Both the position numbers and the translations under genes were made by a program. Source: Candidatus Sungiibacteriota bacterium (GTDB taxonomy: Bacteria > Patescibacteriota > Minisyncoccia > Sungbacterales > JACQCQ01). Taken from it: DNA of 64,000 bases. The notes under the pieces were generated by a model. It was not told the DNA's origin. It made no database searches and was given only the letters and a program-made list of their open reading frames with translations. Positions within the stretch are counted from its first letter, which is position 1, and every line of letters starts with the position of its first letter. The DNA is taken from assembly GCA_016201505.1 (NCBI GenBank), contig JACQCQ010000002.1, positions 144,903 through 208,902 of the forward strand. The letters run 5' to 3'. Below are positions 5,952 through 64,000 of the stretch, one piece after another.

Positions 5952-7001
5952 TCAGGCGAGGCTCGCCGCGCCGGGCGGCATAGATTGGCAGGCTTCGATG
6001 ATGGGACCTAAATCACCTTCCATGATTTGCTCTATATTGTGAAAATTCTGATTGATACGGTGATCGGTGATGCGATCTTGGGAAAAATTGTAGGTCCGGA
6101 TTTTCTCTGAACGATCGGCGGTGCCGATTTGGGATCTCCGCTCGGCAGCCTGCTTTTTCTCTTCGGCCTCACGCTGGATGTCGTAAATTCGGGCACGCAG
6201 AATTGACATGGCCCGTTCCCGATTTTTTAACTGCGACCTGCCCTCTTGCGAAGTCACGACAAAGCCGGTCGGCAGATGCGTAATACGAACAGCCGTTTCT
6301 ACTTTGTTCACGTTTTGTCCACCGGGGCCAGACGAACGATAAAACTCAACCTTGATGTCTGGGGGCTTAATTTCCACATCAATATCTTTGACTTTGGGGA
6401 GAACTGCAACCGAAGCCGTAGAAGTGTGTATCCGTTCCTGTTTTTCAGTTGCCGGAATCCGCTGAATGCGATGGACCCCCGACTCATAGCGCAGCAACTT
6501 ATACGCATCTTCGCCGTCAACTTCAAAGACTACTTCTTTAAATCCGCCGAGCTCTGACTCTGAAGATGAAATTAATTCAACCTGCCATTTTTTTGATTCT
6601 GCAAATCTGGTGTACATGCTAAAAAGCTCTCTCGCAAAAAGTGAGGCTTCTGTCCCGCCGGCTCCGGCGCGAATTTCAATAATAACGTCAGTCGGCAGAA
6701 TCTCTACCACTTTTTCATTTTCTAGATTGTTGAGCTCCTTTTTTAATTTCTCTGCTTCTGCCGTAAGTCGCGCTATATCTTCTGTCGCCATGTCGGCGAA
6801 TATAGGGTCGGCAGCTAATTTTTTTGACTCGGCTAACTCATGGCTGACTTTTTCAAGTTTTTCGAGAACGGCCTGAATTTTTCGTAATTTTTGCAGCCTC
6901 GCGCCGGCTATTTTGGCATCCGTGCGACTTGAAAGAAACCCGGGATCACTAAGTTTATCAGTCAGCTCGTTTATTTCTTTTTCTATTTCTTGTGAGGTCA
7001 T
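5952..7001 (-). CDS. prfA: peptide chain release factor 1
   Basis: 349 aa. GGQ motif (SGPGGQNVNK) and PAT tripeptide (RIQRIPATE), i.e. RF1 not RF2. Single uninterrupted frame. Confidence 0.85.
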   Translation of the reverse strand: MTSQEIEKEINELTDKLSDPGFLSSRTDAKIAGARLQKLRKIQAVLEKLEKVSHELAESKKLAADPIFADMATEDIARLTAEAEKLKKELNNLENEKVVEILPTDVIIEIRAGAGGTEASLFARELFSMYTRFAESKKWQVELISSSESELGGFKEVVFEVDGEDAYKLLRYESGVHRIQRIPATEKQERIHTSTASVAVLPKVKDIDVEIKPPDIKVEFYRSSGPGGQNVNKVETAVRITHLPTGFVVTSQEGRSQLKNRERAMSILRARIYDIQREAEEKKQAAERRSQIGTADRSEKIRTYNFSQDRITDHRINQNFHNIEQIMEGDLGPIIEACQSMPPGAASLA

Positions 7002-7079
7002 TTGGTTGCTGAATACTAATAGCCTAAATTTTAACCAAACTTAAAAACAATCTTAAACTTAGAATTTAGGGTTTCGTAT

Positions 7080-7328
7080 TTAGGATTTTGTTTTCCGGGC
7101 CCGAGGAGCTTTTGTTTGGGTCGCTACGCGCTTTAAGAGCCGTGTCTTATACTTTTCGACGCGGCCGGCGGCGTCAATTAGTTTTGATTTACCAGTATAA
7201 AAAGGGTGACAATTTGAGCAAATTTCAATTTCCAGGTGCTCTTTGATTGACCCGGTCTTAATCGCGTTCCCGCAGGCGCATTTGATCGTCGCCTTATCAA
7301 AATATGTCGGATGAATGACTTCTTTCAT
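7080..7328 (-). CDS. rpmE: 50S ribosomal protein L31 (Zn-ribbon type)
   Basis: 82 aa. MKEVIHPTY..., CxC...CxxCH zinc ligands. Confidence 0.85.
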
Positions 7329-7464: not shown

Positions 7465-8259
7465 ATGACCTTAGCCGAAATGGATCTGAAAAGCGAATTG
7501 AGTCCGGACGAAGAAATCCAAACCCTTATGAAGGCCGGGGTGCATATTGGGCATGTAAAATCCAAAACTCATCCGGCTATGCGACCTTTTATCTTTACGA
7601 CCAGAAATAACGTCCAGATCATTGATGTTTTAAAAACGAAGGAGTTTTTGGTAAAAGCCGAGGCCTTTTTAGAGAGCGTCCGGGCTCGCGGGGGACTTAT
7701 CCTTTGGGTCGGCACTCGGCCATCGGCGCGGGTTGCGGTTGAACAAGCCGCCAAGAAAACCAGTATGCCCTACGTTACCACGCGCTGGACGGGAGGACTC
7801 TTAACAAATTTCCGCGTGATCTCGAAGCGAGTGCAAGACATGGAGGAGATTGAACGCCAGACGCGTGACGGCGAACTGGAGAAGTACACCAAACAAGAAC
7901 GCGCTCGCATCAATGATGAATATCAATCGCTCGTAAAAGTCCATGACGGTCTCCGCCTCTTAAAAAAGATGCCGGATGCGGTGATTATTATTGACACCCT
8001 GCAGGACAACCTGGCAGTCAATGAAGCGCGAAAAGTCAGAATTCCGATTGTCGCTCTTTCTGACACCAATACCGATCCGAATCTGGTTACCTATTCTATC
8101 CCATCCAATGATGATGCCAGACTCGCCGTCGGCTATATGACTGAACGCTTGGCCGAAGCAATTTTGGAAGGTGCTGAAGAGGCCAAGCGAGTCGAAGCGC
8201 TCGCAAAAGCCAAAGCGGAAGAAGCCAAAGCCAAAGTACAGGAGGAATTGAAAGCATGA
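7465..8259 (+). CDS. rpsB: 30S ribosomal protein S2
   Basis: GVHIGH motif. The start is chosen at MTLAEMD rather than the upstream in-frame ATG. Acidic/Lys-rich C-terminal tail. Confidence 0.85.
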   Translation: MTLAEMDLKSELSPDEEIQTLMKAGVHIGHVKSKTHPAMRPFIFTTRNNVQIIDVLKTKEFLVKAEAFLESVRARGGLILWVGTRPSARVAVEQAAKKTSMPYVTTRWTGGLLTNFRVISKRVQDMEEIERQTRDGELEKYTKQERARINDEYQSLVKVHDGLRLLKKMPDAVIIIDTLQDNLAVNEARKVRIPIVALSDTNTDPNLVTYSIPSNDDARLAVGYMTERLAEAILEGAEEAKRVEALAKAKAEEAKAKVQEELKA

Positions 8260-8372
8260 TCCCGTTAGAAACCGCGACGCGATCGTCAAACGATGAAGAA
8301 AATATGATGAAATGTAAAATCAATAGCCTAATGCAGACACCGCGTAGGGTCGCGATCTGCTTCTAACGGGAT
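8259..8372 (+). repeat. CCCGTTAGA-bracketed element (a): ATCCCGTTAGAAACCGCGACGCGATCG ... GGTCGCGATCTGCTTCTAACGGGAT, exactly filling the rpsB-tsf spacer
   Basis: Terminal inverted repeats read from the sequence. The ends are near-identical to element b1 at 45601-45694 but the interior differs. Confidence 0.6.
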
Positions 8373-15694: not shown

Positions 15695-15732
15695 CCTATA
15701 AATACGATAGACTAGTCTATCGTACTTATAGG
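15695..15732. repeat. 38-bp palindrome copy 1 (CCTATAAATACGATAGACTAGTCTATCGTACTTATAGG), 51 bp upstream of the peptidase gene
   Basis: Near-perfect dyad (one mismatch). The CGATAGACTAGTCTATCG core is identical to the copies at 24962 and 54090. Confidence 0.7.
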
Positions 15733-19547: not shown

Positions 19548-21353
19548 TTATATCTCGGTAACGACTGGCAGCACCATCGGCCGGCGATGTGTCTTTTGAT
19601 AGAGAAATTGGCCGATGTCATCTCGGATTTGGTATCGAATATAGGACCAGTTAACCGGGTGCTGGCCGGCGGTTGTCGTATGCTCAACAATCTCTTTTAC
19701 TTTGTGCCGCACCATTTTTAAGAGTTCTTGGTTTTCACGAAGATAAATGAAGCCGCGAGAGATAATATCAGGCGAGGTATACACCTTGCCGGTTTTGGAG
19801 TCGACGATAGCGATGATGACAAAGATCCCGTCTTCGGCCAGCATCTGGCGGTCTCTTAACACGACCTCACCGACATCACCAACGCCCAGTCCGTCCACAA
19901 AGACGTAATTGGCTGAAACTTCTTCCTTGGCAATACGCGCCGAATCGGCCGTTAATTCCACAATCTTGCCGTTTCCGGCGATCATAATATTTTCTTTGGG
20001 AATGCCGACTGATTCAGCCAGATTCGCATGAAGTTTTAGCATAAAGTAATTGCCGTGGATCGGCATAAAAAACTTCGGTCGCATCAGATTGATCATCAAT
20101 TTCAGGTCTTCCTGCTGGGCGTGACCTCCGGCGTGAATATCCATCATGCCGTAGTGGAATACATTCGCTCCTTGGCGGTAGATGATGTCTTTTAACGATT
20201 GAATCGTGCGTTCGTTACCGACAATGACGGAAGAAGAGAATATCACTGTGTCGCCCTCCTCAAAGCGAATAAATTTATGCTCGCGTTGGGCAATGCGCAT
20301 TAACATCGCGCCCGATTCGCCCTGGGCGCCGGTGCCGATGACTAAAATGCGGTTTGGCGCAAAATTATCGGCGTCCCGCACATCAATAATCGTTCCCTTT
20401 TTGGCTTTAATGTAACCCAGCTCTTGGGCGAGAGCTACGTTTGATTTCATGGAGTAGCCTTCGACGATGACCTTGCGGTCATATTTTTCAGCCAGCGTAA
20501 TTAATTGCTGAATGCGCGAGATCAGCGAAGCAAACGTCGCCGTAATGATTCGGCCCTTGCAGGCGGCAAATATTTCGTCGAGGTTTTGGAAGATGGTGCT
20601 TTCTGAAATCGAGTGCCCGGGACGTTCAGCACCGGTTGAATCCGACATGAGCATGAGCACGCCTTCTTGCGAAAGACGGGCGATGCGCGCGTAATCGGCA
20701 GGCTTATCACCATGCGGATTATTGTCGAACTTAAAGTCGGCAGTATGGCAGATAATGCCGACTGGTGTGTGAATGGCCACACCAACCGTATCCGGGATAT
20801 TGTGATTTACATGGAAGAATTCAATCTTGAAAACTCCAAGCTCGAGTGTCGTATCCTCCTTTATCTCCTGGATATCGATCTCGCCCATGTGCTTAAAGTC
20901 TTCTTGTCGCTTTAAGATGATGGCGCGGGTTAGCGGCATCGCATAGACTGTCGGATTTCCAATTTGGGGAATGACATACGGAATGCCGCCGATGTGGTCA
21001 TAATGCGCGTGCGTGATAATCACACCGCGGATTTTGTCTTTGTTTTGTTTTAAGTAGGTTGCGTCGGGGATGATATAGTCAACGCCGGGCATATTTTCTT
21101 CGGGAAACTGAAGTCCTAAGTCGATGACGATGATGTCGCCGCCATATTCAAGCAGCATCGAATTTCGTCCAACCTCCTCGAGTCCCCCGAGCGGGATGAC
21201 GCGGAGCACTCCCAGTTTTATATTTACCGCAGATTTTTCGCGCGGCTCGGGACGCGCCCGGAAGGGCAGCGGGCCTCGGCCGCGTCCCCGCGAACTGTTG
21301 CGCCGGTCGCGAAAATCGCGCCTCGGTTTTTGTACTGATGGTCTCATTGGCAT
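19548..21353 (-). CDS. rnj: ribonuclease J (beta-CASP metallo-beta-lactamase) with an Arg-rich N-terminal extension
   Basis: HAHYDHIGG motif, beta-CASP and C-terminal domain. About 45 N-terminal residues are R/P-rich and low-complexity. Confidence 0.85.
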   Translation of the reverse strand: MPMRPSVQKPRRDFRDRRNSSRGRGRGPLPFRARPEPREKSAVNIKLGVLRVIPLGGLEEVGRNSMLLEYGGDIIVIDLGLQFPEENMPGVDYIIPDATYLKQNKDKIRGVIITHAHYDHIGGIPYVIPQIGNPTVYAMPLTRAIILKRQEDFKHMGEIDIQEIKEDTTLELGVFKIEFFHVNHNIPDTVGVAIHTPVGIICHTADFKFDNNPHGDKPADYARIARLSQEGVLMLMSDSTGAERPGHSISESTIFQNLDEIFAACKGRIITATFASLISRIQQLITLAEKYDRKVIVEGYSMKSNVALAQELGYIKAKKGTIIDVRDADNFAPNRILVIGTGAQGESGAMLMRIAQREHKFIRFEEGDTVIFSSSVIVGNERTIQSLKDIIYRQGANVFHYGMMDIHAGGHAQQEDLKLMINLMRPKFFMPIHGNYFMLKLHANLAESVGIPKENIMIAGNGKIVELTADSARIAKEEVSANYVFVDGLGVGDVGEVVLRDRQMLAEDGIFVIIAIVDSKTGKVYTSPDIISRGFIYLRENQELLKMVRHKVKEIVEHTTTAGQHPVNWSYIRYQIRDDIGQFLYQKTHRRPMVLPVVTEI

Positions 21354-21561: not shown

Positions 21562-21670
21562 ATCCCGTTAGAATGCCGCGGGTGGGAGTTGAACCCACAC
21601 ATCCTTTCAGATACACGGTCCTGAACCGTGCGCGTCTGCCAATTCCGCCACCGCGGCATTCTAACGGGAT
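21562..21670 (-). repeat. ATCCCGTTAGAATG ... CATTCTAACGGGAT inverted repeat that extends the tRNA-Leu acceptor stem by 14 bp on each side
   Basis: Read from the sequence. Same terminal words as the CCCGTTAGA elements at 8259 and 45601. Confidence 0.6.
21574..21657 (-). tRNA. tRNA-Leu (anticodon CAG), long variable arm
   Basis: Minus-strand read: GCCGCGGTGGCGGAATTGGCAGACGCGCACGGTTCAGGACCGTG...GGGTTCAACTCCCACCCGCGGCA. No encoded CCA. Confidence 0.8.
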
Positions 21671-24936: not shown

Positions 24937-24961
24937 TAGCCGGCGTTTTCCATGCGAGGTG

Positions 24962-24997
24962 CTATAAATCCGATAGACTAGTCTATCGGATTTATAG
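24962..24997. repeat. 36-bp palindrome copy 2 (CTATAAATCCGATAGACTAGTCTATCGGATTTATAG), perfect, 26 bp upstream of the minus-strand membrane-protein gene
   Basis: Perfect dyad, same core as copies 1 and 3. Confidence 0.7.
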
Positions 24998-25170
24998 AGA
25001 CTATGCCTAATAGTTACTTTTACCCCTTTCTTTAATAATTTTGGCTAGCAAGAAAACACCCCTGCCGCTTTGGCGGGTTACATGCTTTTTCTTTTTCTCT
25101 CTCCGCTCCGATTTAAATTTCCGTTTTTCCTTCACGTATTCAGTATATTCGAGACTGTCTGGACTTCATA

Positions 25171-26600: not shown

Positions 26601-26625
26601 TGATCCCGTTAGAGAATTAATTATC
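26601..26625 (+). repeat. solo left arm of the CCCGTTAGAGAATTAA-type element (GATCCCGTTAGAGAATTAATTATCGG) in the uvrC/uvrA divergent spacer
   Basis: 17-nt identity to the left arm of element b2 at 45701. No right arm found nearby. Confidence 0.45.
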
Positions 26626-26744: not shown

Positions 26745-29633
26745 ATGCCCGAATCTAGAATTAAGAATAAAGAATTAGGAATTAGGAATAGTGCGAGAGG
26801 TCAAGGCGATTTTATTCGCATCAGGGGGGCTCGCGTCCATAATTTAAAAAGTGTCGATGTCGACATCCCCAAAAACAAATTAGTGGTCATTACCGGCCTT
26901 TCGGGCTCCGGAAAATCGTCACTCGCCTTTGACACTATTTACGCCGAAGCTGAACGACGGTACGTAGAATCACTTTCAGCCTACGCGCGCCAATTTATCG
27001 GCATATCAGACAAGCCGGATGTTGATTCAATCGAAGGACTCTCGCCCGCCATCGCCATCGATCAAAAAAGTGTTCCGCGAAATCCGCGTTCTACCGTCGG
27101 GACTATTACCGAAATCTACGACTATCTCCGAATTATTTTTGCGCGGGTTGGAAAGGCACATTGCCCGTCATGCGCCAAACCGATTGGAAGACAGACGGTC
27201 GGCCAGATCGTGGATCATATATTAAAAGAGAAAAAGTGGTCGGAGGTCCAAGTCTTGGCTCCGCTGGTGCGCGGTAAAAAGGGCGAGCATCGCGGAATCC
27301 TAGAAGAAGTCAAGCGCGCCGGTTTTATTCGCGTCCGGATTGACGGCATTGTACATCGGCTGGAAGAGGCGATTGATTTGCCGATTGATAAACAAAAGAA
27401 GCATTCAATTGAGGTGGTGGTTGATCGGGTTGAAATTGGAAGAGGACTTGAGCGTTCGCGGCTCGCCGATTCTGTCGAGACGGCGTTAAAAATTGGCAAA
27501 GGCCTCGTTATCGTCGCCACGGTCAGCGACAAGCAATCAGTCACAAGCGACAAGGCAAAAGATGAGATTTTCTCCGAGCACTTTGCCTGCCCGGATTGCG
27601 GGATTAATTTATCTGAAATTGAGCCAAGAACGTTTTCATTTAACAGCCCCTATGGCGCCTGTTTCGCGTGCACCGGACTTGGCTCAACGCTTGAGGTTGA
27701 CACCAAATTAGTTTTCCCCAATCCGAAGTTAACGCTGGCGGAAGGTGCGATTGCGCCCTGGTCGCATGCTTCGCATCGCGTAGGCCGTCAATCCTGGTAC
27801 TGGTGGATGTTAGAAGACCTCGCCGATCGGCACAAATTTTCATTGAATAAATCCGTCCAGGATTTGCCGAAGGCCGTAGTGGATTTAGTTTTGCATGGCG
27901 AGAAAAAAAATGCGGCAGAGGGCGAGACAACATTTGAGGGCGTGGTGCCAAATTTAAAACGCAGATGGAAGGAAACGGATTCTGAATGGACACGGGCTGA
28001 GATTGAAAAATATATGCTGATTCAGACGTGTCCGTTATGCCAGGGGCGCCGGCTAAAACCAGAGACTCTAGCAATTACCGTGGCTTTCCGCAACATCGCC
28101 GACATTTCGGAAATGACTGTGCGCGAGTCGCTCGAGTTTTTTTTCGATCTGCCGAAAGAACTTTCAGCTAATGATGCCAAGATCGCCGGACCTTTGGCGA
28201 AAGAAATCCTGAAACGACTTCAGTTTTTGACGAATGTGGGACTGCATTATTTGACGCTCTCGCGTGAATCCACTACGCTCGCCGGCGGCGAGGCGCAGCG
28301 CATTCGACTTGCCACGCAAATCGGCTCGAGGCTCACCGGCGTCATTTATGTTTTAGATGAGCCTTCAATCGGACTTCACGCCGAAGATCATCATAGGCTG
28401 ATCGAGACCTTAAAAGAACTGCGCGATCTTGGGAATACCGTCATTGTGGTTGAACATGATGCCGAAACCATGAGACAGGCGGATTGGATTATTGATTTGG
28501 GTCCGGGTGCGGGCAAACACGGCGGCGAGGTAATTTTTACGGGAGATGCTAAGGCCTTGAGGAGAGCAAAAACTCTTACCGCGGACTATATTTCCGGCCG
28601 CAAAGAAGTTGAGATTAAACATGCGCATCGGAGTGGGAATGGATTGAAACTCGAAATTCTCGGCGCCAAAGAACACAACTTAAAAGATATTGATGTCAAA
28701 ATCCCGCTGGGCATGTTTGTCTCGGTTTCGGGTCCGTCCGGCTCGGGCAAATCAACGCTGATTAACGACATTTTGGCCAAGGCTTTGCTGAAGAGCCTGT
28801 ATCAGGCGCATACGATTCCCGGCCGGCATGATGCGATTGTCGGTCTTGAACATTTAGATAAAGTGGTCGTGGTGGATCAATCGCCGATTGGCAGAACGCC
28901 CAGATCCAATCCCGCGACCTATACCGGAGTTTTTGGTTTGATCCGCGATATTTTTTCCAAAACTGCCGAAGCACGCGCCCGAGGCTATGTTCCCGGCCGG
29001 TTTTCATTTAATGTCAAAGGCGGCCGGTGTGAAGTCTGCGAGGGGCAGGGTGTCAAAAAAATTGAGATGTATTTCTTGCCCGATGTTTATGTGGACTGCG
29101 AGGAGTGCCACGGGAAAAGATACAGCCGCGAGGCGCTTGAGATTTTATATAACGGTAAAAATATTGCTGATGTTTTAGATTTGACGGTTGAAGAGGCGCT
29201 TAGATTCTTTGAGGCTATTCCGGGGATTAAACAAAAGTTAAAGACGCTCTCCGATGTCGGCCTTTCGTATGTAAAGCTTGGCCAATCGGCCACGACGTTA
29301 TCCGGCGGGGAAGCCCAGCGCATTAAATTAGCCGCCGAACTTTCGCGTCGCGACACCGGTAAAACACTTTATATATTGGATGAGCCGACAACCGGACTTC
29401 ACTTTGAAGACATTCGAAAATTGCTCACCGTTTTGCACGCCCTCGCCGACAAAGGCAATACCGTGCTGGTGATTGAGCACAATTTAGACGTCATTCGTAA
29501 TTCAGACTATGTGATTGATTTGGGTCCGGAGGGCGGAGCGGCCGGAGGGGAAGTCGTGGCCGAAGGAACTCCGGCGGAAATTATGGAAATAAAAAACAGT
29601 TTAACCGGGAAGTGGCTGAAGAAAACAGGCTAA
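26745..29633 (+). CDS. uvrA: excinuclease ABC subunit A
   Basis: Two ABC ATPase modules (GLSGSGKSS and GPSGSGKST), zinc-finger Cys pairs, LSGGE signature twice. Start taken at MPESR; the track ORF starts at 26715. Confidence 0.9.
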
Positions 29634-30375: not shown

Positions 30376-30403
30376 TTGACGAATCAATTCGACTTGCGCT
30401 ATA
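30376..30403 (+). promoter_or_regulatory. sigma70-like promoter TTGACG-N18-TATATT for groES
   Basis: -35 at 30376-30381 and -10 at 30398-30403, immediately followed by CIRCE. Confidence 0.55.
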
Positions 30404-30430
30404 TTAGCAGTCGATAAAGTTGAGTGCTAA
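30404..30430 (+). promoter_or_regulatory. CIRCE operator (TTAGCAGTC-N9-GAGTGCTAA), the HrcA binding site
   Basis: One mismatch from the TTAGCACTC-N9-GAGTGCTAA consensus, in the classical position downstream of the groES promoter. Confidence 0.8.
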
Positions 30431-30443
30431 TCTTTTAATTAAA

Positions 30444-30521
30444 GCTGACAGTCTGCCGACTACCGTCTACAGCCCCGCCTGGTATGTGCTGTAGTCTATA
30501 GTCTGTCGTCTGTAGACAGAC
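30444..30521 (+). promoter_or_regulatory. GACTACAG/GTCTACAG-word structured leader element, groES copy
   Basis: GCTGACAGTCTGCCGACTACCGTCTACAGC...GCTGTAGTCTATAGTCTGTCGTCTGTAGACAGAC. Self-complementary words GTCTACAG/CTGTAGAC, ending 3 nt before the ATG. Confidence 0.5.
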
Positions 30522-30523
30522 AA

Positions 30524-30820
30524 ATGAACATCAAGCCGCTTGGCGACAGGGTGGTGATTCTGCCTTTGTCCGATACGAAAGAAGGAAAAACTAAGTCCGG
30601 CCTGTATCTGCCCGATACGGCCTCAAAAGAACGACCGGAAAAAGGCGAAATCATAGCGGTTGGCCCGGGCAAAATGGATGACGCGGGGAAACGGATGCCG
30701 ATTGGCTTGAAGCGGGGCGACGTCGTTTTGTTTACCAAATACGGACCGCAGGAAATAAAAATCGATGGAAAAGAGTACTTGATCGCGCGGGAAGACGATG
30801 TCATCGCGATTGTAGAGTAA
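30524..30820 (+). CDS. groES: co-chaperonin GroES
   Basis: 98 aa. MNIKPLGDRVV..., mobile-loop and beta-barrel pattern. Confidence 0.9.
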   Translation: MNIKPLGDRVVILPLSDTKEGKTKSGLYLPDTASKERPEKGEIIAVGPGKMDDAGKRMPIGLKRGDVVLFTKYGPQEIKIDGKEYLIAREDDVIAIVE

Positions 30821-30845: not shown

Positions 30846-32627
<1,782 letters not shown>

Positions 32628-43109: not shown

Positions 43110-43748
43110 ATGATCGGCGAAGCTTTAAAAAATGCCAGGAGACAGAGGGGACTTTCGCTTGCTGAATCAGCGCGGCTTTCAAATCTACCATCACGTTTTC
43201 TTTTAGCGCTTGAGGCTGAAGATCTTTCGATTTTAGGCGGTTGGATCTACGCTGAACGCTACGGCAGAACCTATGCTGATTTTTTGGGCATCTGGTCACA
43301 AGAATTCCAGCACGAGTTGCTCTCGCTCTGGGAAACGGATCTTTTTAAAAAGGAGAAGAGACTAAAGAAACCATCTCTGTGGCGCCGCCTGCCAGTGCTT
43401 CTCACGCGCCAGCGTTTTTTAAAGATTTCCGGTGCCGCTCTCATAATCTTAATAGGATTTTATTTCTCATATCAGCTGTCGAATTTGTTGTTGGCTCCGC
43501 GGATCAGCCTTGTATCGCCCCAAGCCGAGTTCACTGCGGTACGCGATCAGAAATTCACCATACAGGGAAAATTAAAAGAAGCGGCAAGGCTCGCCATTAA
43601 CCGACGCCCCATCAATACGGCTAAAAACGGAGAATTTAAGGTAGACTTGTACCTCTCTCCCGGACTCAATAGAATAAATCTGGATGCGACTAATGTCAGC
43701 GGCAAAGAATTTCGGGAAATTCGATATATCGTCTACAGTCCCAAATAG
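43110..43748 (+). CDS. RodZ-like protein (XRE-type HTH, single TM, extracytoplasmic domain)
   Basis: MIGEALKNARRQRGLSLAESARLSNLPSRFLLALEAEDL HTH and one TM helix (ISGAALIILIGFYFSYQL). Confidence 0.5.
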   Translation: MIGEALKNARRQRGLSLAESARLSNLPSRFLLALEAEDLSILGGWIYAERYGRTYADFLGIWSQEFQHELLSLWETDLFKKEKRLKKPSLWRRLPVLLTRQRFLKISGAALIILIGFYFSYQLSNLLLAPRISLVSPQAEFTAVRDQKFTIQGKLKEAARLAINRRPINTAKNGEFKVDLYLSPGLNRINLDATNVSGKEFREIRYIVYSPK

Positions 43749-43752
43749 CAAA

Positions 43753-43844
43753 TAATATAAATCAAATCGTCTACCGACTACAGACTACTGCACCGAAATC
43801 CAAAGCGCAGTAGTCAGTGGACGGTAGACTGTAGTCCAATAAAA
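43753..43844 (+). promoter_or_regulatory. structured leader element, recA copy
   Basis: AATAATATAAATCAAATCGTCTACCGACTACAGACTACTGCACCGAAATCCAAAGCGCAGTAGTCAGTGGACGGTAGACTGTAGTCCAATAAAA immediately 5' of the ATG. Perfect 9-bp central hairpin GACTACTGC/GCAGTAGTC. Confidence 0.55.
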
Positions 43845-44882
43845 ATGGCTAAACAATCTGTTGATCTCAAAACTCAAAAAGCTAAAGCGCTTGAATACAC
43901 CGTAAAAGAAATCCAAGGAAAATATGGCGAAGGCTCGATAATGAAATTGGGTGAAGCCAGAAAAGTTGACGTGGATGTTATTCCGACGGGGTCGCTCGCG
44001 CTTGATTGGGCACTCGGCGTCGGCGGAATACCGCGAGGCAGAATCATCGAAGTCTACGGACCCGAGTCATCGGGTAAAACGACACTGGCGCTCCACATAG
44101 TTGCCGAGGTTCAGAAGAAGGGCGGGATAGCGGCATTTGTGGACGCGGAGCATGCGCTCGATCCTGAATATGCCAAGCGTATAGGGGTTAAAATTAATGA
44201 TCTTTTTATTTCACAGCCTGATACCGGCGAGCAAGCGCTTGAGATCGTGGAATCCCTCGTAAAGTCGGGTGCGGTTGATTTGATTGTGATTGATTCGGTT
44301 GCAGCCCTAACCCCCAGGGCCGAAATCGAAGGTGAAATGGGCCAGCAGCACATGGGGCTGCAAGCACGCTTGATGTCGCATGCCTTGCGAAAGCTGACGG
44401 GCATTGTATCAAAAGGCAATACCACGATTGTTTTCATTAATCAGATTCGCATGCAGATCGGCATTATGTTTGGCAATCCCGAGACAACGCCCGGCGGCAA
44501 AGCGCTTAAATTTTACTCATCAGTTCGTATCGAGGTGCGGCGGGCGGCGCAAATTAAAAAAGGCGACGAGGTCATTGGGAATCGCGTAAAGGCAAAAATT
44601 GTAAAAAATAAAGTTGCGCCACCCTTCAGAACGGCGGAATTCGATATCTTCTATAATCAGGGCATCGCGGCCGAAAGTGAGATTATTTCTTTGGGTATTA
44701 AATACGGGCTGGTCAAAAAATCCGGTGCTGCGCTTTCCTACGGGGCAATAAAGCTCGGCCAGGGGTTTGATGCTGGCCGGACATTTCTGAAGGAAAACCC
44801 TAAAATCAAAAATGAAATTGCGGATTTAGTGCGCCAAAAACTAAACTCGGGTGCTGCGGCCGAAGTAGAAAGCCAGGGATAA
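43845..44882 (+). CDS. recA: recombinase RecA
   Basis: 345 aa. GPESSGKTT Walker A and the L1/L2 loops. Confidence 0.95.
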
Positions 44883-45136: not shown

Positions 45137-45601
45137 TCAAAATGGTATATCTTTCACATCAATCTCATCCTCCGGGTACTGGACCGTGGGCGGCTCTTCG
45201 GCTGGAGCGCCTTGACCTTGACGCGAATCCGTTTCAGCCATCGTTGCCGCGCCCGTATTTTCTCTCTCCAAAGGCCGCGGGCCCATTTGCATTGACTCAG
45301 CGACGATCTCGGTGCGGTAACGCTTCGCGCCACTTTCTTTATCTTGCCAAGAACGGGTCTCAATTCTGCCTTCGACAAATACCAGCCTGCCGCGATTTAA
45401 ATACTGTCCGCAAATCTCCGCCAGCTTTCCCCAGGCTACAATGCGATGGAACTCGGCTTTCTGATTTTTTTCACCCGCTGGCGACATCCAGACTCGATTG
45501 GTGGCCACATCGAATGTACAAACCGATTGGCCAGTTGGGGTTTGTCTCAATTCCGGATCCCGGGTCAAGTTGCCGAGGATCATCGCTTTATTTACATTCA
45601 T
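45137..45601 (-). CDS. ssb: single-stranded DNA-binding protein
   Basis: GTG start. OB-fold (ILGNLTRDPELR), acidic DIPF C-terminal tail. Confidence 0.85.
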   Translation of the reverse strand: MNVNKAMILGNLTRDPELRQTPTGQSVCTFDVATNRVWMSPAGEKNQKAEFHRIVAWGKLAEICGQYLNRGRLVFVEGRIETRSWQDKESGAKRYRTEIVAESMQMGPRPLERENTGAATMAETDSRQGQGAPAEEPPTVQYPEDEIDVKDIPF

Positions 45602-45694
45602 CCCGTTAGAAGCAGATCGCGATCATCCGCGCTATCGCTCGAGTTAAGCTATTAATGTTGAGGAGCTTCATACCATTGTACCCCGTGTATGCGA
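45601..45694 (-). repeat. CCCGTTAGA-bracketed element b1 (CCCGTTAGAAGCAGATCGCGATC ... GCGATCGCGGCTTCTAACGGG) in the rpsF-ssb spacer
   Basis: The ends match element (a) at 8259-8372 in the same orientation relative to transcription. The interior is unrelated. Confidence 0.6.
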
Positions 45695-45700
45695 TCGCGG

Positions 45701-45799
45701 CTTCTAACGGGATTCATCCCGTTAGAGAATTAACTACTAACTCTGTTGCTGGTCTCATGTCTTTATGTGTCGTGAGTTTCATGTTCGAAATGTAGTCTC
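45701..45799 (-). repeat. CCCGTTAGA-bracketed element b2 (CCCGTTAGAGAATTAACT ... ATTCTCTAACGGG), tandem to b1 and separated from it by ATTCAT
   Basis: Terminal inverted repeats read from the sequence. Left arm shared with the solo copy at 26601. Confidence 0.6.
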
Positions 45800-45895
45800 T
45801 GATTCATTCTCTAACGGGATTCATGGTATTAACCGCAAACTTTTACAAACTTTCCCGCTAAGGTATACAAAATTTTTCATATTCCTTTTGTGGTC

Positions 45896-54089: not shown

Positions 54090-54127
54090 CCTATAAGTTC
54101 GATAGACTAGTCTATCGGACTTATAGG
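54090..54127. repeat. 38-bp palindrome copy 3 (CCTATAAGTTCGATAGACTAGTCTATCGGACTTATAGG), 18 bp upstream of the hrcA CIRCE
   Basis: Dyad with one mismatch, same core as copies 1 and 2. Confidence 0.7.
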
Positions 54128-54144: not shown

Positions 54145-54171
54145 TTAGCGCTCTTGACGTGAGACTGCTAA
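54145..54171 (+). promoter_or_regulatory. CIRCE-like operator (TTAGCGCTC-N9-GACTGCTAA) with an embedded TTGACG -35 for hrcA
   Basis: One mismatch per arm versus the consensus. Positioned at the hrcA-grpE-dnaK operon promoter. Confidence 0.65.
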
Positions 54172-54193
54172 CAGTGATAATCTATTTCCTGTA

Positions 54194-54913
54194 ATGAATC
54201 CTGTCACAAAGCGCCAAGAAGATTTGCTGTTTGCCGCAGTTAGCGAGCACATCCGCACCGGTGAGGCCGTCTCTTCAGATGACCTGCGCACTCGGTATCG
54301 CCTGTCATACAGTCCAGCGACCATCAGAAATGAGCTTTTAGCCCTTTCCGAACTCGGCTTCTTAGATCAGCCGCATACTTCGGCTGGTCGTATTCCGACT
54401 GACAGAGGCTATCGCTGGTACGCAGACAAGATTTCAGCCGCGTCGCCTCTTAAAAAAGACGAGGTCACAGCCATCAGACAGATTTCCGAAGAATACACGG
54501 ATTTAAACGAGTTCTTCCGCCTTTCAACTGAAATGCTGGCTCGCATGGTGCAAGCCCTGGTTGTCGGCGGCGTGTCCGAAAATTCAATGGAACCTTTCTA
54601 TAAAAGCGGATTCGGCCAAATCCTTTCCGAGCCCGAGTTTACGGAATCAATATCGCGCAACAGCTTCGGCGAGCTGGTTGACTCAATTGATGCCGATGTT
54701 AGGTCGCTGATCGAAGCTCGTGATTTTAAAATTCCGCACATATTTATTGGCGGAGAAAATCCGATCGAAGAAGCCCGCCCCTACAGCATGATTATAAAAA
54801 CCATCGAGCATGGAGATGATCGGGGAGTCCTGGCTATCATTGGCGCTAAGCGGATGCGATATGATAAAGGTCTATCGTTACTTTCAGCGCTTGACTCAAT
54901 TTTTGATGAGTAA
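54194..54913 (+). CDS. hrcA: heat-inducible transcription repressor HrcA (short form)
   Basis: 239 aa. N-terminal wHTH (TIRNELLALSELGFLDQPHTSAGRIPT). Shorter than the canonical roughly 340-aa HrcA. Confidence 0.75.
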   Translation: MNPVTKRQEDLLFAAVSEHIRTGEAVSSDDLRTRYRLSYSPATIRNELLALSELGFLDQPHTSAGRIPTDRGYRWYADKISAASPLKKDEVTAIRQISEEYTDLNEFFRLSTEMLARMVQALVVGGVSENSMEPFYKSGFGQILSEPEFTESISRNSFGELVDSIDADVRSLIEARDFKIPHIFIGGENPIEEARPYSMIIKTIEHGDDRGVLAIIGAKRMRYDKGLSLLSALDSIFDE

Positions 54914-55036: not shown

Positions 55037-55561
55037 ATGGACGAACCTGAAATAATTGAAGCGGAGTTGGAAAACGGCTCCCCGCCCGATCCAATTGAAA
55101 AGCTGAATACGCTAAAAGAAAAATTGAAAGCCATCGAAGAAGAAAAGAAACAGTACCTCGAGGGCTGGCAGAGGGCAAAGGCAGATCTCATAAACTCACG
55201 ACGCGACGAGGAACGGAAGATGTCGGATTGGCGGGGAATGATTGAAAACCAGGTGATCCTCGAATTCATGCCGGTACTTGATAGTTTTGAAATCGCGTTG
55301 AAACACCGGCACGAGCCGCCTATGCCGGAAGATTCAATGAGGGGCTTTCAACTCATATACGCGCAATTACTTGATACCTTACGCCGATTGGGCGTTCAGC
55401 CGATCAAAACTAAAAATGAAATGTTTGATCCAGCCTTCCATGAAGCCATCGAAGAAATAGAAACAGACGCCCCATCGGGCAGAATCATTGAGGAAATTCA
55501 GAAAGGATACAGGCGGGGAGAAGTACTGTTACGGCCGGCACGAGTTAAAGTTGCTAAATAA
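55037..55561 (+). CDS. grpE: nucleotide exchange factor GrpE
   Basis: 174 aa. Coiled-coil N-terminus and the conserved GrpE C-terminal beta domain. Confidence 0.85.
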   Translation: MDEPEIIEAELENGSPPDPIEKLNTLKEKLKAIEEEKKQYLEGWQRAKADLINSRRDEERKMSDWRGMIENQVILEFMPVLDSFEIALKHRHEPPMPEDSMRGFQLIYAQLLDTLRRLGVQPIKTKNEMFDPAFHEAIEEIETDAPSGRIIEEIQKGYRRGEVLLRPARVKVAK

Positions 55562-55570
55562 TTAAAACAG

Positions 55571-55637
55571 GCTACAGCTGACGGACTACAGACCACAGGA
55601 CGGTAGTCAGTAGACGGTAGACTGTAGTTGCAAAAAA
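55571..55637 (+). promoter_or_regulatory. structured leader element, dnaK copy
   Basis: GCTACAGCTGACGGACTACAGACCACAGGACGGTAGTCAGTAGACGGTAGACTGTAGTTGCAAAAAA immediately 5' of the ATG. Same word set as the groEL and recA copies. Confidence 0.5.
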
Positions 55638-57533
55638 ATGGCTAAAATAATCGGAATTGATTTAGGCACAACGAATTCAGCGGTCGCCTATGTTGAAGGA
55701 GGCGAACCAAAAATTATCGAAAACAAAGAAGGCAATCGGACCACGCCCTCGGTTGTCGCCTTGTCCAAGACCGGCGACCGCCTAGTTGGCCTCTTGGCAA
55801 AACGCCAGGCCGTGACCAATCCAAGAAACACTTTTTACTCGATTAAGCGTCTGATCGGGCGCAAATTTACGGATGCCGAAGTACAAAAAGATTTAAAACT
55901 CCTACCCTATGAGTTACGCGCATCCTCAAATGGCGGCGTTGAAGTGAAAATGGGAGAAAAGTGGGTCCGGCCGGAAGAAATCTCGGCCATGATTTTACAG
56001 AAATTAAAGCAGGACGCCGAAGAAAAGCTTGGAACGAGCATTACGGAGGCGGTCATTACGGTGCCGGCCTACTTTGATGACTCACAGCGAAAAGCGACAC
56101 AAGCCGCCGGCGAAATCGCGGGATTTACGGTGCGCCGCATCTTAAATGAACCGACAGCTGCCGCCCTCGCCTACGGACTCAATAAAAAGAAAGATGAGAA
56201 AATTGTGGTCTACGATTTTGGCGGAGGAACGTTTGACATATCGGTGCTCGAAATCGGAGACGACACGATTGAGGTAAAATCAACCGACGGGGATACGCAC
56301 TTGGGTGGTGACGACTTCGACCAGAAGATTATCAACTGGATCATTCACGAGTTTAAAAAAGATCAAGCCATTGATATCTCGAAAGACACCCTGGCCCTGC
56401 AGCGTTTGAAAGAGGCGGCGGAAAAAACGAAACACGAGCTCTCCTCAACCATCGAAACGGAAATTAATATCCCGTTCATTACGTCGGATGCGTCTGGACC
56501 AAAACATTTAGTTATGAAACTCTCGCGGGCTACGCTTGAGTCTCTAGTAAAAGATGACATCGATCGCTCGATCGAAATTACGAAACGCGCAGTTGAGGCC
56601 GCCGGATTTAAGCTCTCGGATGTTCATGAAATTATCCTGGTGGGCGGGCAAACCAGGATGCCTCTTATCCAGCAAGCAGTAAAAAATTTATTCGGCAAAG
56701 AACCGAATAAATCGATTAACCCGGACGAGGTGGTGGCGCTGGGGGCTGCCATCCAAGCCGGCATTATGCAGGGTGACGTAAAGGATATTTTGCTGCTCGA
56801 CGTCACTCCGCTCTCACTCGGCATCGAGACGCTCGGCGGCGTATTCACGAAGATCATCGAAAAAAATACGACGGTCCCAACCGCCAAGTCGCAAGTCTTT
56901 TCAACTGCGGCGGACAATCAGACGCAGGTTGAAATTCACGTGCTTCAAGGCGAACGCGAAATAGCCCACGATAATAAAACGCTGGCTCAATTTGTCCTTG
57001 ACGGCATCCCGCCCGCGCCTCGAGGCTTGCCGCAAGTTGAAGTTTCATTCGATATTGACGCCAACGGTATCCTGTCAGTAAAAGCCCGCGACAAATCAAG
57101 CGGCAAGGAGCAATCGGTCCGGGTTGAGGCCTCTTCTTCGCTTTCAAAAGACGAGATCGAACGCATGAAGAAGGATGCTGAAATACACGCCTCCGAAGAT
57201 AAGAAAAAGAAAGCGGAAATTGAGGCCAGAAACGCCGCTGATAGTCTTATTTATACGAGCGAGAAGTCCCTGCGTGATGCCGCGGATAAAGTCCCGCAAG
57301 ATCTAAAGACCGAGATCGAATCAAAGATTGCCGAATTAAAACGCGCGAAGGATACTGGAGGTACGTCCCAAATTGAAAAAGCCTCGCAAGACCTTTCGCA
57401 GTCGCTATCCAAGATCGGCGAAATTCTCCACCAGGCGAGCCAGTCTCAAGAGACCGGCAGTGCCGATAAAAAAGATGAGAATGTGCAAGATGCGGAGTAT
57501 AGCGAAAAACCAAGTGACGAACCGACGACGTAA
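55638..57533 (+). CDS. dnaK: molecular chaperone DnaK
   Basis: 631 aa, full Hsp70 architecture ([16 protein letters not shown]). Confidence 0.95.
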
Positions 57534-60641: not shown

Positions 60642-63600
60642 TAAATTAATTCGACTTCGAGAAGCCGCAAAAATTTCTGGAATTCACCAGGACTATTTAC
60701 GAGTTCTCATTAATCGAAAAAACTTAAGAGCAAAAAAAATCGGCCGAGATTGGTTTATTACGGCCCAAGATTTAACCGATTACCTCAAACAATCAAAAAA
60801 ACGATCAAATGGTATTCAGCTGCAAAAGGCTGAAAAAGTTAGCGTCACCCTTAAGCCAAGCCATAACCTAAAAATAAGGCGAAAATTATACCAGCCAGAG
60901 GCTACGCTTGTTCGCACGATACACGAGAACATTTTTTCAAACTTCAATCAGGCAAGGAATTATGAAAAAATAACTTCAGCAGAAAAAAGATACGATCTTT
61001 ACTTAAATCAGCCTAAATCTCGATACGTATCAAACTACAAGCCAATTTTTATATCAATTTCCGCGATTGTATTGGCTTTGGGGGGCTATTTTGCGGCATT
61101 GAATTTTGGCAGTGAGCTGATGCGGGCGGCTAATGAGTCAGGTATCAGGATCCGCAATTTAGCGAACTACCTAACACCGGAGATTACGCCGGCTCCAATT
61201 GGCCAAACGCGCTCACATGCCTATACCTCAATTCAGGAAGGTTCAAATGCGGACCTCGGCCGCGTGTTGCGTGGATTTAGTGAGCTTGGTGCGGGACAGG
61301 CAACTTCCGGATTCTCTAATTTAATTCAAATCGCAAGCCGCACGCCGTATGAGATATACCGGGGTATTCAAAACGGGATTTCCGGCGTGTCGGTAAGCCC
61401 GCAAGCATCCAACCAGCTCTCCGGGATTTTTAAAAGCATCCAGCCCTTCTTCTCCAATCTGCTGATTGGCTCAAATCTCCGCGAGACGGTAACAATTCCG
61501 TCTGATCTCGGCCTGATTCTTCCGCCCCAAGTCGCTTCAACGCCGACAACAACAAAAGTGTCAGTTCCTACCGGCGCATCTTCCGGCACCCAGATTGTCG
61601 CAAAACAAACAATCATCCAAAAGATCGTACCGGCCGACACCGCAAAAATTAAAGCGGAACTTTTAGCCTATATCAGCTCGCAAACGGCTGACTTTAAGAA
61701 CCAGCTTTTTAATCTCTCAAATAAAATCATCAGCCTCCAGGGAAATCTTGACAATACCACTCACGTCGCCGGGTCAACCTATCAAATGGTGAACTTAACG
61801 CAGCGAATAAATCAGCTCGACAGTTTGACAGTTACTGGCGGACTTTCGGTAACTTCCGGAAACCTTTCTGTCGCGGGAGGAATTTCTGCAGCAACCGCAT
61901 CATTTTCAAATTTGAGCGTTTCAAATTTAACCGTAACAAACTGCACCGGCTGCGGCGGCGGTTCCGGATCGCAAACTCCCTGGATTTCCAGCATCGAGGG
62001 CGCGGGATTTAATTTGGCCGACGTTGGCACGTTAACTGTTACGGTAATTAACGCGACCTCAACCTCCGCAACTTCAACATTTTCTACCGGCGGACTTGCC
62101 ATTGGCACCAGTCAATTTGTCATTCAGCAAACTTCAGGCCGCGTGGGCATCGGCACAACCTCGCCAGTTCAATTATTTTCTGTTGTCGGATCAGGATACT
62201 TGACCGGCGGACTCGGGGTTGGTGTCGCTACATCATCAGCCGGCGTCATCGAAACGACCGGTCAAATTCTGGTTGGCGGCCAATTAATTGTGCAAGGTGC
62301 CGCGACGTCAACCTTCACCGGCAACGGCATTAACGTGACGACAGGATGCGTCGCCATAAGCGGGACCTGTCTCGGATCAGGATCTGGCACCATTAATGCG
62401 GGAACAACAAATCGACTGGCGTACTATTCGGGCGCCTCCACCATCAGCTCGGCTAATTTTTTGGCTGTCGACGCGACAAATAATCTCTTCGGCATCGGTA
62501 CCTCTTCTCCCGCATCAGTTTTTTCACTGGCGTCAAACGGCCGCGTGGCTTCATCCACCCTGCCCAATGCTTCTTCAACCTCAATTTTTCTTTCTGGCGT
62601 AAACCTCCAATACGGCTCCTCATCCACCACCACCATTCCGAATTCATTGGTCAATGGCTGGAGTATTGCAACGTCATCCGATGTGGGGAGTTCACCCTTC
62701 CTCTCAATTGACACTTCGAACAATAGGATTGGTGCTTTCACCGTGGCACCGCAGACAGCTCTCGATATCAACGGGGGACTGCAAGCTCGGGGAGCATCAT
62801 CTACGATAGTCAACCTCTCAATCTGGAACGCCACGACGACCCTCTTGCTGGGGACTGGGGCAACGTCTACAATCTCGAACCTCTCCATCTGGAATGCCAC
62901 GACGACCCAACTGATTATTCCCGCATACTATGCCAGTGGCGCGGGGGGGACATTCGGCCACGGCACCTCGACTCCCGGATTCTTTGAGTCTTTTGCCTTA
63001 AATGGCGCCGCATCCTCAACACTGCCGAACGCCTCGTCAAGCTCGTTTTTCTTTTCGGGAATTAATCTGACCTATGGCTCCTCGTCAACCACGACGATTC
63101 CGGCGAACGTAAACGGCTTCTCGATCGCGACATCCTCTCAACTCGGCAGTTCGCCCCTTCTTTCGCTTAATGGATCAAGCGGAAATATCGGTGTCGGCTC
63201 AAGCTCGCCGGCGCAAACTTTCTCGGTCGCCGGCAACGCTTATGTCACCGGCGGATTCGGTATCGGCGCGACCAGAACTTCAAACGGACTTACGATTTCA
63301 TCCATCGCGAGCTGTACCGGCGGTCAAGCCCTGCAAACCGACAGTTTAGGATCAGTTTCCTGCGGAGCAGTTTCAAGCGGAGGCGCCTCGACAGGCGGCG
63401 GTTGGAGTTCAAGTGTTCCCAACCAAGCCGTAACGCTTGCTACCACAACTTTCTCGGTCGGTATTGGCGCAACTACGACGCCGTACGGAAAACTGACTGT
63501 GCTTTCGGGTGATGCCGCAACGACGACCTTGGTGCTTTATCCGGCCGCGTCTCAAACCGCCAATATCATTGATATCTACGACACTTCCGGCGCTCTATCC

Positions 63601-64000
63601 TCGGTATTAAATTCAAGCGGCAATCTGGGCCTTGCGAGCACAAGTCCCGCAACTAAACTTTCCGTCAACGGCTCGGGTTATTTTACCGGCGGCCTGGGAG
63701 TCGGAACACTGAATACTACCGCGGGCACAATTTCAGTGACTGGTCTGGCTACACTTTCGGGCGGAGTTCTCTCCAATGCGGCGTCCTCTACTATTTCCAA
63801 TCTCTCGATCTGGAACGCCACGACCACAAACCTCTTCATCCCCGCATTTAAGAATGGGCTGTCGTATCTGGCACTCGGCACCTCGACCCCAGCGGCCTAT
63901 GTTGCCTTTGCCTTAAATGGCGCGGTCGCCTCAAGCACCTTCCCGCAAGCCTCATCCACATCCATTTATCTTTCCGGCATCAATCTGACCTATGGCTCGT
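60634..64000 (+). CDS. giant repetitive Ser/Thr/Gly-rich putative cell-surface protein with N-terminal excisionase-type HTH and a single TM (partial; runs off the window end; absent from the supplied ORF track)
   Basis: Frame verified codon by codon from ATG 60634 to 63999 with no stop. N-terminus IRLREAAKISGIHQDYLRVLINRKNLRAKKIGRDWFITAQDLTDYL (HTH_17-like). TM YKPIFISISAIVLALGGYFAALNF. Then long degenerate repeats with recurring blocks (GIGTTSP..LxV.G.GY.TGGLGVG; NLSIWNATTT; LPNASSTSIFLSGVNLxYGSSSTTTIP). Confidence 0.6.
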   Translation, partial: MELKLIRLREAAKISGIHQDYLRVLINRKNLRAKKIGRDWFITAQDLTDYLKQSKKRSNGIQLQKAEKVSVTLKPSHNLKIRRKLYQPEATLVRTIHENIFSNFNQARNYEKITSAEKRYDLYLNQPKSRYVSNYKPIFISISAIVLALGGYFAALNFGSELMRAANESGIRIRNLANYLTPEITPAPIGQTRSHAYTSIQEGSNADLGRVLRGFSELGAGQATSGFSNLIQIASRTPYEIYRGIQNGISGVSVSPQASNQLSGIFKSIQPFFSNLLIGSNLRETVTIPSDLGLILPPQVASTPTTTKVSVPTGASSGTQIVAKQTIIQKIVPADTAKIKAELLAYISSQTADFKNQLFNLSNKIISLQGNLDNTTHVAGSTYQMVNLTQRINQLDSLTVTGGLSVTSGNLSVAGGISAATASFSNLSVSNLTVTNCTGCGGGSGSQTPWISSIEGAGFNLADVGTLTVTVINATSTSATSTFSTGGLAIGTSQFVIQQTSGRVGIGTTSPVQLFSVVGSGYLTGGLGVGVATSSAGVIETTGQILVGGQLIVQGAATSTFTGNGINVTTGCVAISGTCLGSGSGTINAGTTNRLAYYSGASTISSANFLAVDATNNLFGIGTSSPASVFSLASNGRVASSTLPNASSTSIFLSGVNLQYGSSSTTTIPNSLVNGWSIATSSDVGSSPFLSIDTSNNRIGAFTVAPQTALDINGGLQARGASSTIVNLSIWNATTTLLLGTGATSTISNLSIWNATTTQLIIPAYYASGAGGTFGHGTSTPGFFESFALNGAASSTLPNASSSSFFFSGINLTYGSSSTTTIPANVNGFSIATSSQLGSSPLLSLNGSSGNIGVGSSSPAQTFSVAGNAYVTGGFGIGATRTSNGLTISSIASCTGGQALQTDSLGSVSCGAVSSGGASTGGGWSSSVPNQAVTLATTTFSVGIGATTTPYGKLTVLSGDAATTTLVLYPAASQTANIIDIYDTSGALSSVLNSSGNLGLASTSPATKLSVNGSGYFTGGLGVGTLNTTAGTISVTGLATLSGGVLSNAASSTISNLSIWNATTTNLFIPAFKNGLSYLALGTSTPAAYVAFALNGAVASSTFPQASSTSIYLSGINLTYGS

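Follow-up and report, generated by a model that had tools for sequence, protein, structure and literature searches.

A heptad-repeat hairpin before recA and three chaperone cistrons in a Sungbacteria genome, and its possible role as an mRNA stem-loop

When recA shares a leader with chaperone genes and has no recognizable SOS box, does this place it under heat-shock control? The question is raised by a 64-kb stretch of DNA (64,000 nucleotides, hereafter referred to as the window, to which coordinates refer unless another contig is named) from a Candidatus Sungiibacteriota bacterium. A preliminary description of this locus had proposed that recA expression is coupled to a heat-shock leader mechanism instead of a classical SOS response, based upon a groEL-like structured leader at recA and the lack of a LexA-type box upstream of recA or in the uvrA/uvrC spacer. 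LexA operators would be expected upstream of recA, yet none of the tested motifs (CTGT-N8-ACAG, GAAC-N4-GTTC, and other phylum-specific LexA motifs) was found near recA, uvrA, uvrC, or ssb, either in the window or in the relatives L122-L128. The sole CTGT-N8-ACAG in the window lies within the uvrC coding sequence and GAAC-N4-GTTC is absent from the window, which agrees with the preliminary description on this point. Likewise, tblastn searches with approximate sequences of the E. coli and B. subtilis LexA proteins yielded no match to a lexA gene in the window or in the loci of CPR relatives.

The recA gene (43845-44882, +; Pfam RecA, 2.2e-138) follows rpoB, rpoC, ftsK, and a RodZ-like HTH_25 gene (43110-43748, +), from which it is separated by a 96-nt spacer containing a long imperfect hairpin at 43769-43836, within the coordinates that had been described previously. 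As read from the sequence and the predicted RNA fold, the stem-loop itself occupies 43769-43829 (+) and consists of a 5' arm at 43769-43791 (GTCTACC GACTACA GACTACT GC), a loop at 43792-43806, and a 3' arm at 43807-43829 (GCA GTAGTCA GTGGACG GTAGAC), all on the plus strand. The stem is composed of helices of 8, 4, and 9 bp with 1x1 mismatches between them, and both arms are built from tandem 7-nt units, which are of the CTAC type on the 5' side (CNGWCTAC-type) and of the GTAGWCN type on the 3' side. Immediately 3' of the stem there is an extra unpaired heptad (TGTAGTC, 43830-43836, +), so that the heptads of the 3' side including this one read GTAGTCA GTGGACG GTAGACT GTAGTCC, followed by an A-rich single-stranded tail (CAATAAAA, 43837-43844, +) adjoining the recA ATG at 43845. 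The AUG and the preceding 8-9 nt are therefore outside of the stem, and no Shine-Dalgarno motif was found before recA. The minimum free energy of the hairpin as RNA is -34.6 kcal/mol, compared to -15.5 +/- 3.1 in dinucleotide shuffles (z = -6.15), and none of 200 shuffles folded as well. When the 100 nt preceding the starts of 48 genes were ranked by their folding, recA was the most anomalous (z = -6.0), and groEL was among the next strongest (z = -4.1) alongside two sites of an unrelated 38-nt palindrome family, with the remaining outliers being terminators or members of that same family. The groEL-like, structured character of the recA leader was thus confirmed. As DNA, the hairpin is of approximately equal stability on both strands. 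Since 7128 nt including the hairpin are reproduced without a difference in an independent Logan assembly, it is not an assembly artefact. A scan found no sigma-70-type promoter upstream of recA; a -10-like TATAAAT at 43756-43762 (+), just 5' of the hairpin, is a candidate promoter, for which the scan found no -35, and the groEL copy of the element has TATACAAAT in its place. It should be noted that the HTH_25 gene is found at this place in every relative, and that in the majority it adjoins recA directly. We consider it unlikely to be a regulator of recA, as it is RodZ-like and its position is kept with or without the hairpin.

A word-density scan of the window identified exactly four such elements: one in the 5' UTR of groES downstream of the promoter (30447-30521), one in the groES-groEL spacer (30860-30939), the recA element (43769-43836), and one in the grpE-dnaK spacer (55570-55629). 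All four are on the plus strand, as are groES (30524-30820), groEL (30945-32627), hrcA (54194-54913), grpE (55037-55561), and dnaK (55638-57533), and each copy stops 3-9 nt 5' of the respective ATG, so that these few A-rich nucleotides and the AUG stay outside of the fold. The same scan found no heptad hairpin at uvrA, uvrC, ssb, recR, hrcA, grpE, or dnaJ. The preliminary description was accordingly correct that recA shares its leader element with chaperone genes, which in the window are groES, groEL, and dnaK. Tandem Repeats Finder reported arrays of period 7 at 30489-30515 (groES), 30864-30890 and 30920-34 (groEL), and 55599-55627 (dnaK); it lists no array at recA, where the heptads were read straight from the sequence. 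The closest paralogue of the recA copy is that of groEL, with ~88% identity over ~100 nt in an alignment that spans TATA(C)AAATCAAAT, the hairpin, and the sequence up to the ATG, and the groEL copy differs by one additional heptad in its 5' arm. The recA copy is a recent paralogue of the groEL copy, and is not ancestral at recA. None of the four copies contains a Shine-Dalgarno-like motif and none is followed by a terminator-like T-run. That all are located in transcribed positions is read from the groES copy, which lies between the promoter/CIRCE and the ATG, and from the groEL and dnaK copies, which are intercistronic. The chance of four random picks among 48 genes all falling within seven chaperone/recA genes is P = 35/194580 (~2e-4), or P ~0.003 when the picks are restricted to spacers (at least 20 spacers of at least 60 nt). 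The element at recA is real and non-random. We also considered whether its heptads supply TAG stops in all three frames before the AUG, and rejected this as a general rule because recA and groES have no frame-0 stop within 60 nt.

The heptad hairpin is also distinct from the operator of the heat-shock repressor HrcA. A CIRCE element (TTAGCAGTC-N9-GAGTGCTAA, 30404-30430) follows the groES promoter (TTGACG-18-TATATT, 30376-30405), and another (54145-54171) overlaps the hrcA promoter (TTGACG-16-GATAAT, 54154-54181), all on the plus strand. A search for TTAGCACTC-N9-GAGTGCTAA with up to 3 mismatches located only these two sites in the window and none at recA. CIRCE does resemble the hairpin in being an inverted repeat upstream of groES and the dnaK operon genes, and both elements are present in those operons; however, they differ in sequence, size, and position, CIRCE being a 9-N9-9 repeat at the promoter, while the hairpin copies are either at least 40 nt downstream of CIRCE or between cistrons. 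Only groES and hrcA have a CIRCE, and recA, groEL, and dnaK lack one, which rules out the hairpin as CIRCE or a CIRCE variant. We infer that groESL and hrcA-grpE-dnaK are CIRCE/HrcA operons in which the heptad hairpin is an additional element. At recA, there is the hairpin without CIRCE.

With respect to the broader genome context, only 4 of the 48 genes have a Shine-Dalgarno-like motif, and in ~13 a TATAAT-like -10 hexamer is found 1-17 nt before the start codon, from which it follows that many mRNAs are probably leaderless or nearly so. The four cistrons that bear the hairpin have a real leader or an intercistronic spacer. The window also contains other repeats. A second family, TTCTAACGGGAT, occurs 9 times versus 0.33 expected by chance and is arranged as inverted pairs (ATCCCGTTAGAA, then 80-90 nt, then TTCTAACGGGAT), with sites at 8259-8372, 21562-21670, 45600-45713, 45716-45820, and 26603-26614. 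One such pair fills the rpsB-tsf junction with an ATGA on either side, of which the left includes the stop codon of rpsB and the right the start codon of tsf; the rpsF-ssb spacer (294 nt vs 17-36 nt in relatives) is taken up by two copies in tandem; one pair brackets a tRNA-Leu; and a solo copy is present in the uvrC/uvrA spacer. This family looks like either a MITE that targets ATGA stop/start overlaps or an RNA processing stalk. The third family is the 38-nt near-perfect palindrome CCTATAAGTTCGATAGACTAGTCTATCGGACTTATAGG, with three copies at 15695-15732, 24961-24998, and 54090-54127. The copy that precedes the hrcA promoter has a T-run behind it and a terminator-like score, even though there is no plus-strand gene before it. 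Additional period-7 arrays consist of TTCGGAT (x2.6, 1761-1778) directly before an ATG at 1791, TTAGGAT (x4.3, 7059-7088) ~60-90 nt upstream of a minus-strand gene starting at 7001, and AGAATTA (x4.7, 26757-26789) in frame in an N-terminal coding extension of uvrA that precedes a conserved segment, the unit of the latter differing from GTAGWCN. The direct repeat families D2-D4 (62424-64000), with spacings of ~460 and ~920 nt, probably stem from domains repeated in tandem in a large gene that continues past the end of the window.

The corresponding loci of related genomes indicate how old the recA element might be. Of seven related recA loci that share this gene order, five (L122, L123/L124, L125, and L129; four distinct relatives, as L123 and L124 are two copies of one) have neither a hairpin nor room for one. 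In these, with RecA identities of 77-85%, recA starts 11-42 nt after the HTH_25 gene or overlaps the preceding gene (a small GIY-YIG ORF in L125), and is therefore probably co-transcribed with it. The closest relative (L130/L131, RecA 86%) has a 97-nt spacer containing a different and weaker hairpin (z = -1.8) composed of CCCGAAT/ATTCGAG words. In the same relative, another repeat-built hairpin (GCACAAA..CCAAAT.. / ATTTGG..TTTGTGC) occupies the spacer between ftsK and the HTH_25 gene (L130 4152-4273), indicating that repeat-built hairpins occur at further operon junctions in this clade. L127, L128, and L147 have significant hairpins in the groES leader, the groES-groEL spacer, or both (z = -3.0 to -8.1, with a weaker -1.16 at the L127 groES leader), and L126 has a weak hairpin in the groES-groEL spacer only and none at the groES leader. 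The hairpins of the relatives are all built of short repeated words that recur within each genome but vary from one genome to the next: CACGAAT/ATTCGTG in L127, TACGAAT in L128, and both GGTCAAA/TTTTGNC and CTAATTT/ATTTAGN heptads in L147. Upstream of dnaK, L132 has five direct AATTAGN heptads that do not form a hairpin, and L134 has a 25-nt spacer without one. Among these relatives, the position is conserved at the chaperone cistrons, with a complete turnover of the sequence and a sporadic copy at recA. One of the hairpins bears more directly upon the level at which selection might act. The groES-leader hairpin of L147 (3527-3582; Sungbacteria RIFCSPLOWO2_02_FULL_48_13b) has a continuous 20-bp helix with 6 G-U pairs, out of 23 pairs in the whole hairpin, and its predicted stability is -30.0 kcal/mol as sense RNA, but only -13.3 as antisense RNA and -9.2 as DNA. 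This strand asymmetry is the one direct indication of selection on mRNA structure. It comes from a relative, because sense and antisense folds are equally stable in all four copies of the window, where we found no G-U bias. The strain variants L147-L150 have too little variation for compensatory changes. The 3' arm of this hairpin is made of TTTTGNC units, including GTCTTTT, which we take to be a high-affinity heptamer of cold-shock proteins.

Beyond the Sungbacteria, a loose version of the heptad pattern matched at least 120 loci in contigs representing one genome per species, compared to a chance estimate of ~9 for random sequence. The matches listed include Acidobacteriota (many of them Pyrinomonadaceae), Gemmatimonadota, Chloroflexota, Bacteroidota, Cyanobacteria, Planctomycetota, and two CPR genomes, and among them are many inverted arrays between genes, several of which stop just before a start codon. 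Outside of the Sungbacteria, tblastn with GroES, GroEL, DnaK, GrpE, HrcA, and RecA revealed no linkage to chaperones or recA among the matches listed. A strict two-arm pattern was found in 11 metagenome contigs. In the groundwater metagenomes, the sites are L138 3086-3266, L137 10790-10956 and 9337-9489, and L146 5942-6094. In L146, a hairpin 8 nt before the ATG separates a histidine kinase from a response regulator, and direct GACTACC heptads are found in a pseudopilin leader peptide. L137 has a hairpin immediately upstream of the probable start of an S1 gene. Other members reside within coding sequence: an in-frame hairpin adds ~24 residues (TDYSLQTTAKNKEAVVSSRKSVSS) after the Walker A motif of the L137 radA product, and another adds ~18 residues (YRLQSTDYSQKEAVVSSQK) between ITIK and LNLIDTPGH of the L138 lepA product. 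Such a distribution is that of a dispersed, possibly mobile, palindromic repeat. The lepA and radA hairpins resemble the in-frame insertions of Rickettsia palindromic elements. Pyrinomonadaceae MAGs (L013, L030, L034, L105, L110, L116, L118, and others) have several copies per genome in which GTAGNCA arrays follow one gene and CTACTGN arrays precede the next, bracketing a GC-rich terminator-like hairpin with a polarity opposite to that of the Sungbacteria elements. The rejected TAG stop rule fails here as well, since the start-proximal arm is in the stop-free CTAC orientation.

What, then, might the hairpin do at recA? The reading that we favor, and to which we give roughly even credence, is that the recA leader is a genome-specific heptad palindromic element acting as a cistron-proximal mRNA stem-loop, without making recA HrcA-dependent or heat-inducible. 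The element would act at the RNA level, directly before the downstream cistron, where the stem-loop could set the 5' end of the downstream mRNA or shield it from enzymes such as RNase J, or else be a site of processing. The window does encode an RNase J (19548-21353, -), which belongs to the 5'-to-3' exonucleases that 5' stem-loops block. The stem-loop may also insulate an A-rich initiation region that has no Shine-Dalgarno motif. In this way, the output of groES, groEL, dnaK, and recA would be raised or uncoupled relative to upstream genes such as grpE, hrcA, ftsK, and rodZ, and recA would have been given the same post-transcriptional property as the chaperone cistrons. If the hairpin is functional, recA shares its function with those cistrons. 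Several observations argue against this mRNA stem-loop: the equal sense and antisense stabilities of the four window copies; the fact that most relatives do without the hairpin at recA, as L134 does at dnaK and L126 at the groES leader; the in-frame insertions in lepA and radA, as they are a selfish behavior that needs no function; and the lack of a detectable σ70-type promoter for recA.

The strongest competitor is that the element is a selfish or neutral dispersed palindrome (REP-, RPE-, or MITE-like) with no regulatory role, which grows by slippage, spreads by insertion or gene conversion, and is kept wherever spacers tolerate it. We regard this as possible but doubtful. It would readily accommodate the GTAGWCN arrays and hairpins at 120 or more loci in many phyla, their presence in frame in lepA and radA and in a pseudopilin leader peptide, the two further palindromic families and other period-7 arrays of the window (one of them inside uvrA), the lineage-specific recA copy, and the similarity of copies within genomes together with their dissimilarity between genomes. 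It would not predict that all four copies precede chaperone or recA starts despite the numerous other spacers of sufficient length, nor that hairpins recur at the groES and groEL sites of relatives with unrelated sequences. Furthermore, the G-U-rich, sense-specific hairpin of L147 argues for selection on RNA structure, and no transposase, target-site duplication, or in-frame copy of the heptad family was found in the window. The mRNA stem-loop can also be extended into a broader and rather unlikely proposal, in which, given that most genes of these Sungbacteria have no Shine-Dalgarno motif and many appear leaderless, the hairpins are post-transcriptional "punctuation" just ahead of the AUG that singles out certain cistrons (groES, groEL, dnaK, and recA in this lineage) to be processed or protected at the 5' end. 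A trans-acting factor that binds or cleaves RNA would co-evolve with their genome-specific words, recA would have been recruited into a chaperone post-transcriptional regulon, and the TTCTAACGGGAT-flanked inserts at rpsB-tsf, rpsF-ssb, and tRNA-Leu would form a second class. Were this true, internal cistrons would behave like near-leaderless, stable mRNAs.

The heat-shock portion of the preliminary description fares less well than its observations. It corresponds to a leader that responds to stress, whether as a thermosensor or through a stress regulator that targets it, and that places recA in the heat-shock regulon instead of under LexA control. The shared structured leader, confined within the window to groES, groEL, dnaK, and recA, and the lack of a visible LexA box or lexA gene in the window or near recA, uvrA, and uvrC of close relatives are all consistent with such a leader; nonetheless, we judge it quite unlikely, as the heat-shock step is unsupported. 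The actual heat-shock operator is separate, being located at the two operon promoters and missing at recA. The start codon is not sequestered, and its predicted accessibility (mean P(unpaired) over -12..+12) is flat from 15-55 C, matching control genes. Searches of Rfam yielded no thermometer or leader family, with no match at the gathering score and, at E <= 10, generic hairpin (miRNA precursor) models only, which were far under threshold. An RNA thermometer of the ROSE or fourU type was rejected on these same grounds. In addition, the recA copy is not ancestral and the hairpin is missing in five of the seven related loci; uvrA, uvrC, ssb, recR, hrcA, grpE, and dnaJ are all without the element; and in many phyla these heptad repeats are found in unrelated settings, among them in-frame positions within lepA and radA. 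The recA case is therefore a warning against taking a shared leader for heat-shock regulation, and what it says of SOS control covers the 64-kb window and the loci of the relatives. Lastly, a DNA operator, in which a repressor or nucleoid protein binds the heptads of both arms in double-stranded DNA to control transcription, would suit symmetric palindromes that are equally stable on both strands and as DNA, and heptad direct-repeat arrays are the known operators of some regulators such as CtsR and SARP (PMC5930380), but this is very improbable given that three of the four copies keep a fixed, short distance to a start codon and lie either well beyond a promoter or in an intercistronic spacer, that the repeated words are wholly different between close genomes, that the L147 positional homologue folds well as sense RNA only, and that the element has no linked gene for a candidate regulator.

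Several known systems share features with the mRNA stem-loop that we favor. Stabilizing or processing stem-loops include those of the B. subtilis dnaK operon, the processed groESL mRNA of Agrobacterium, and the 5' stem-loops of ompA and aprE. As in those cases, there is a stable stem-loop just upstream of the more needed cistron (dnaK over grpE; groEL) and an RNase J-type decay enzyme is encoded in the genome, whereas the repeat-built architecture has no counterpart in the B. subtilis, Agrobacterium, ompA, or aprE examples. RPE, MITEs, and REP with a GTAG head are short dispersed palindromes, and the heptad element is similar to them in being dispersed, short, palindromic, and alike within a genome, with a recurring GTAG tetranucleotide and, as for RPE, members in frame in conserved genes (lepA and radA) of other organisms. 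However, GTAG recurs every 7 nt here versus once at the head of REP, there is no in-frame copy in the window, and we identified no transposase or RAYT gene, terminal inverted repeats, or target duplication, the search for transposases having covered ~38 window proteins. The closest resemblance is to start-codon-proximal heptanucleotide repeats. TAACTGA repeats are found near start codons in Beggiatoaceae, Cyanobacteria, and Bacteroidetes, where a post-transcriptional role is suspected (MacGregor 2015, PMC4679880) and S1, Csp, and CsrA have been proposed as binders (PMC4679880), and Nostoc heptamers have been noted near recF/recO (bioRxiv 10.1101/2022.06.06.494920). Similar to the TAACTGA repeats, the cyanobacterial STRR heptamers, and the Nostoc heptamers, the window element consists of tandem 7-nt intergenic units located a few nt from start codons that have no Shine-Dalgarno motif, its distribution is patchy across phyla, and the units are similar (CTACTGA vs TAACTGA). 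The element does have three or more tandem 7-nt units and is intergenic, start-proximal, and without a ribosome binding site, but its arrangement is not direct. Instead, two inverted arrays pair into a hairpin, for which reason we file it as a variant of this class and not as a member. It also differs in its unit, which is GTAGWCN, and in that the window copies are limited to the chaperone cistrons and recA. The element thus stands beside the start-codon-adjacent heptanucleotide repeats, a class that is known but unexplained, as a variant that forms a hairpin and is tied to chaperone cistrons and, in this lineage only, to recA. To this class, our results add a hairpin-forming heptad variant associated with a coherent gene set (chaperones and recA) in a CPR bacterium, a position that is conserved among relatives despite complete sequence turnover, and one G-U-rich homologue that points to a role at the RNA level. 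If these hairpins are functional, they would illustrate how a reduced, Shine-Dalgarno-poor genome tunes individual cistrons within operons.
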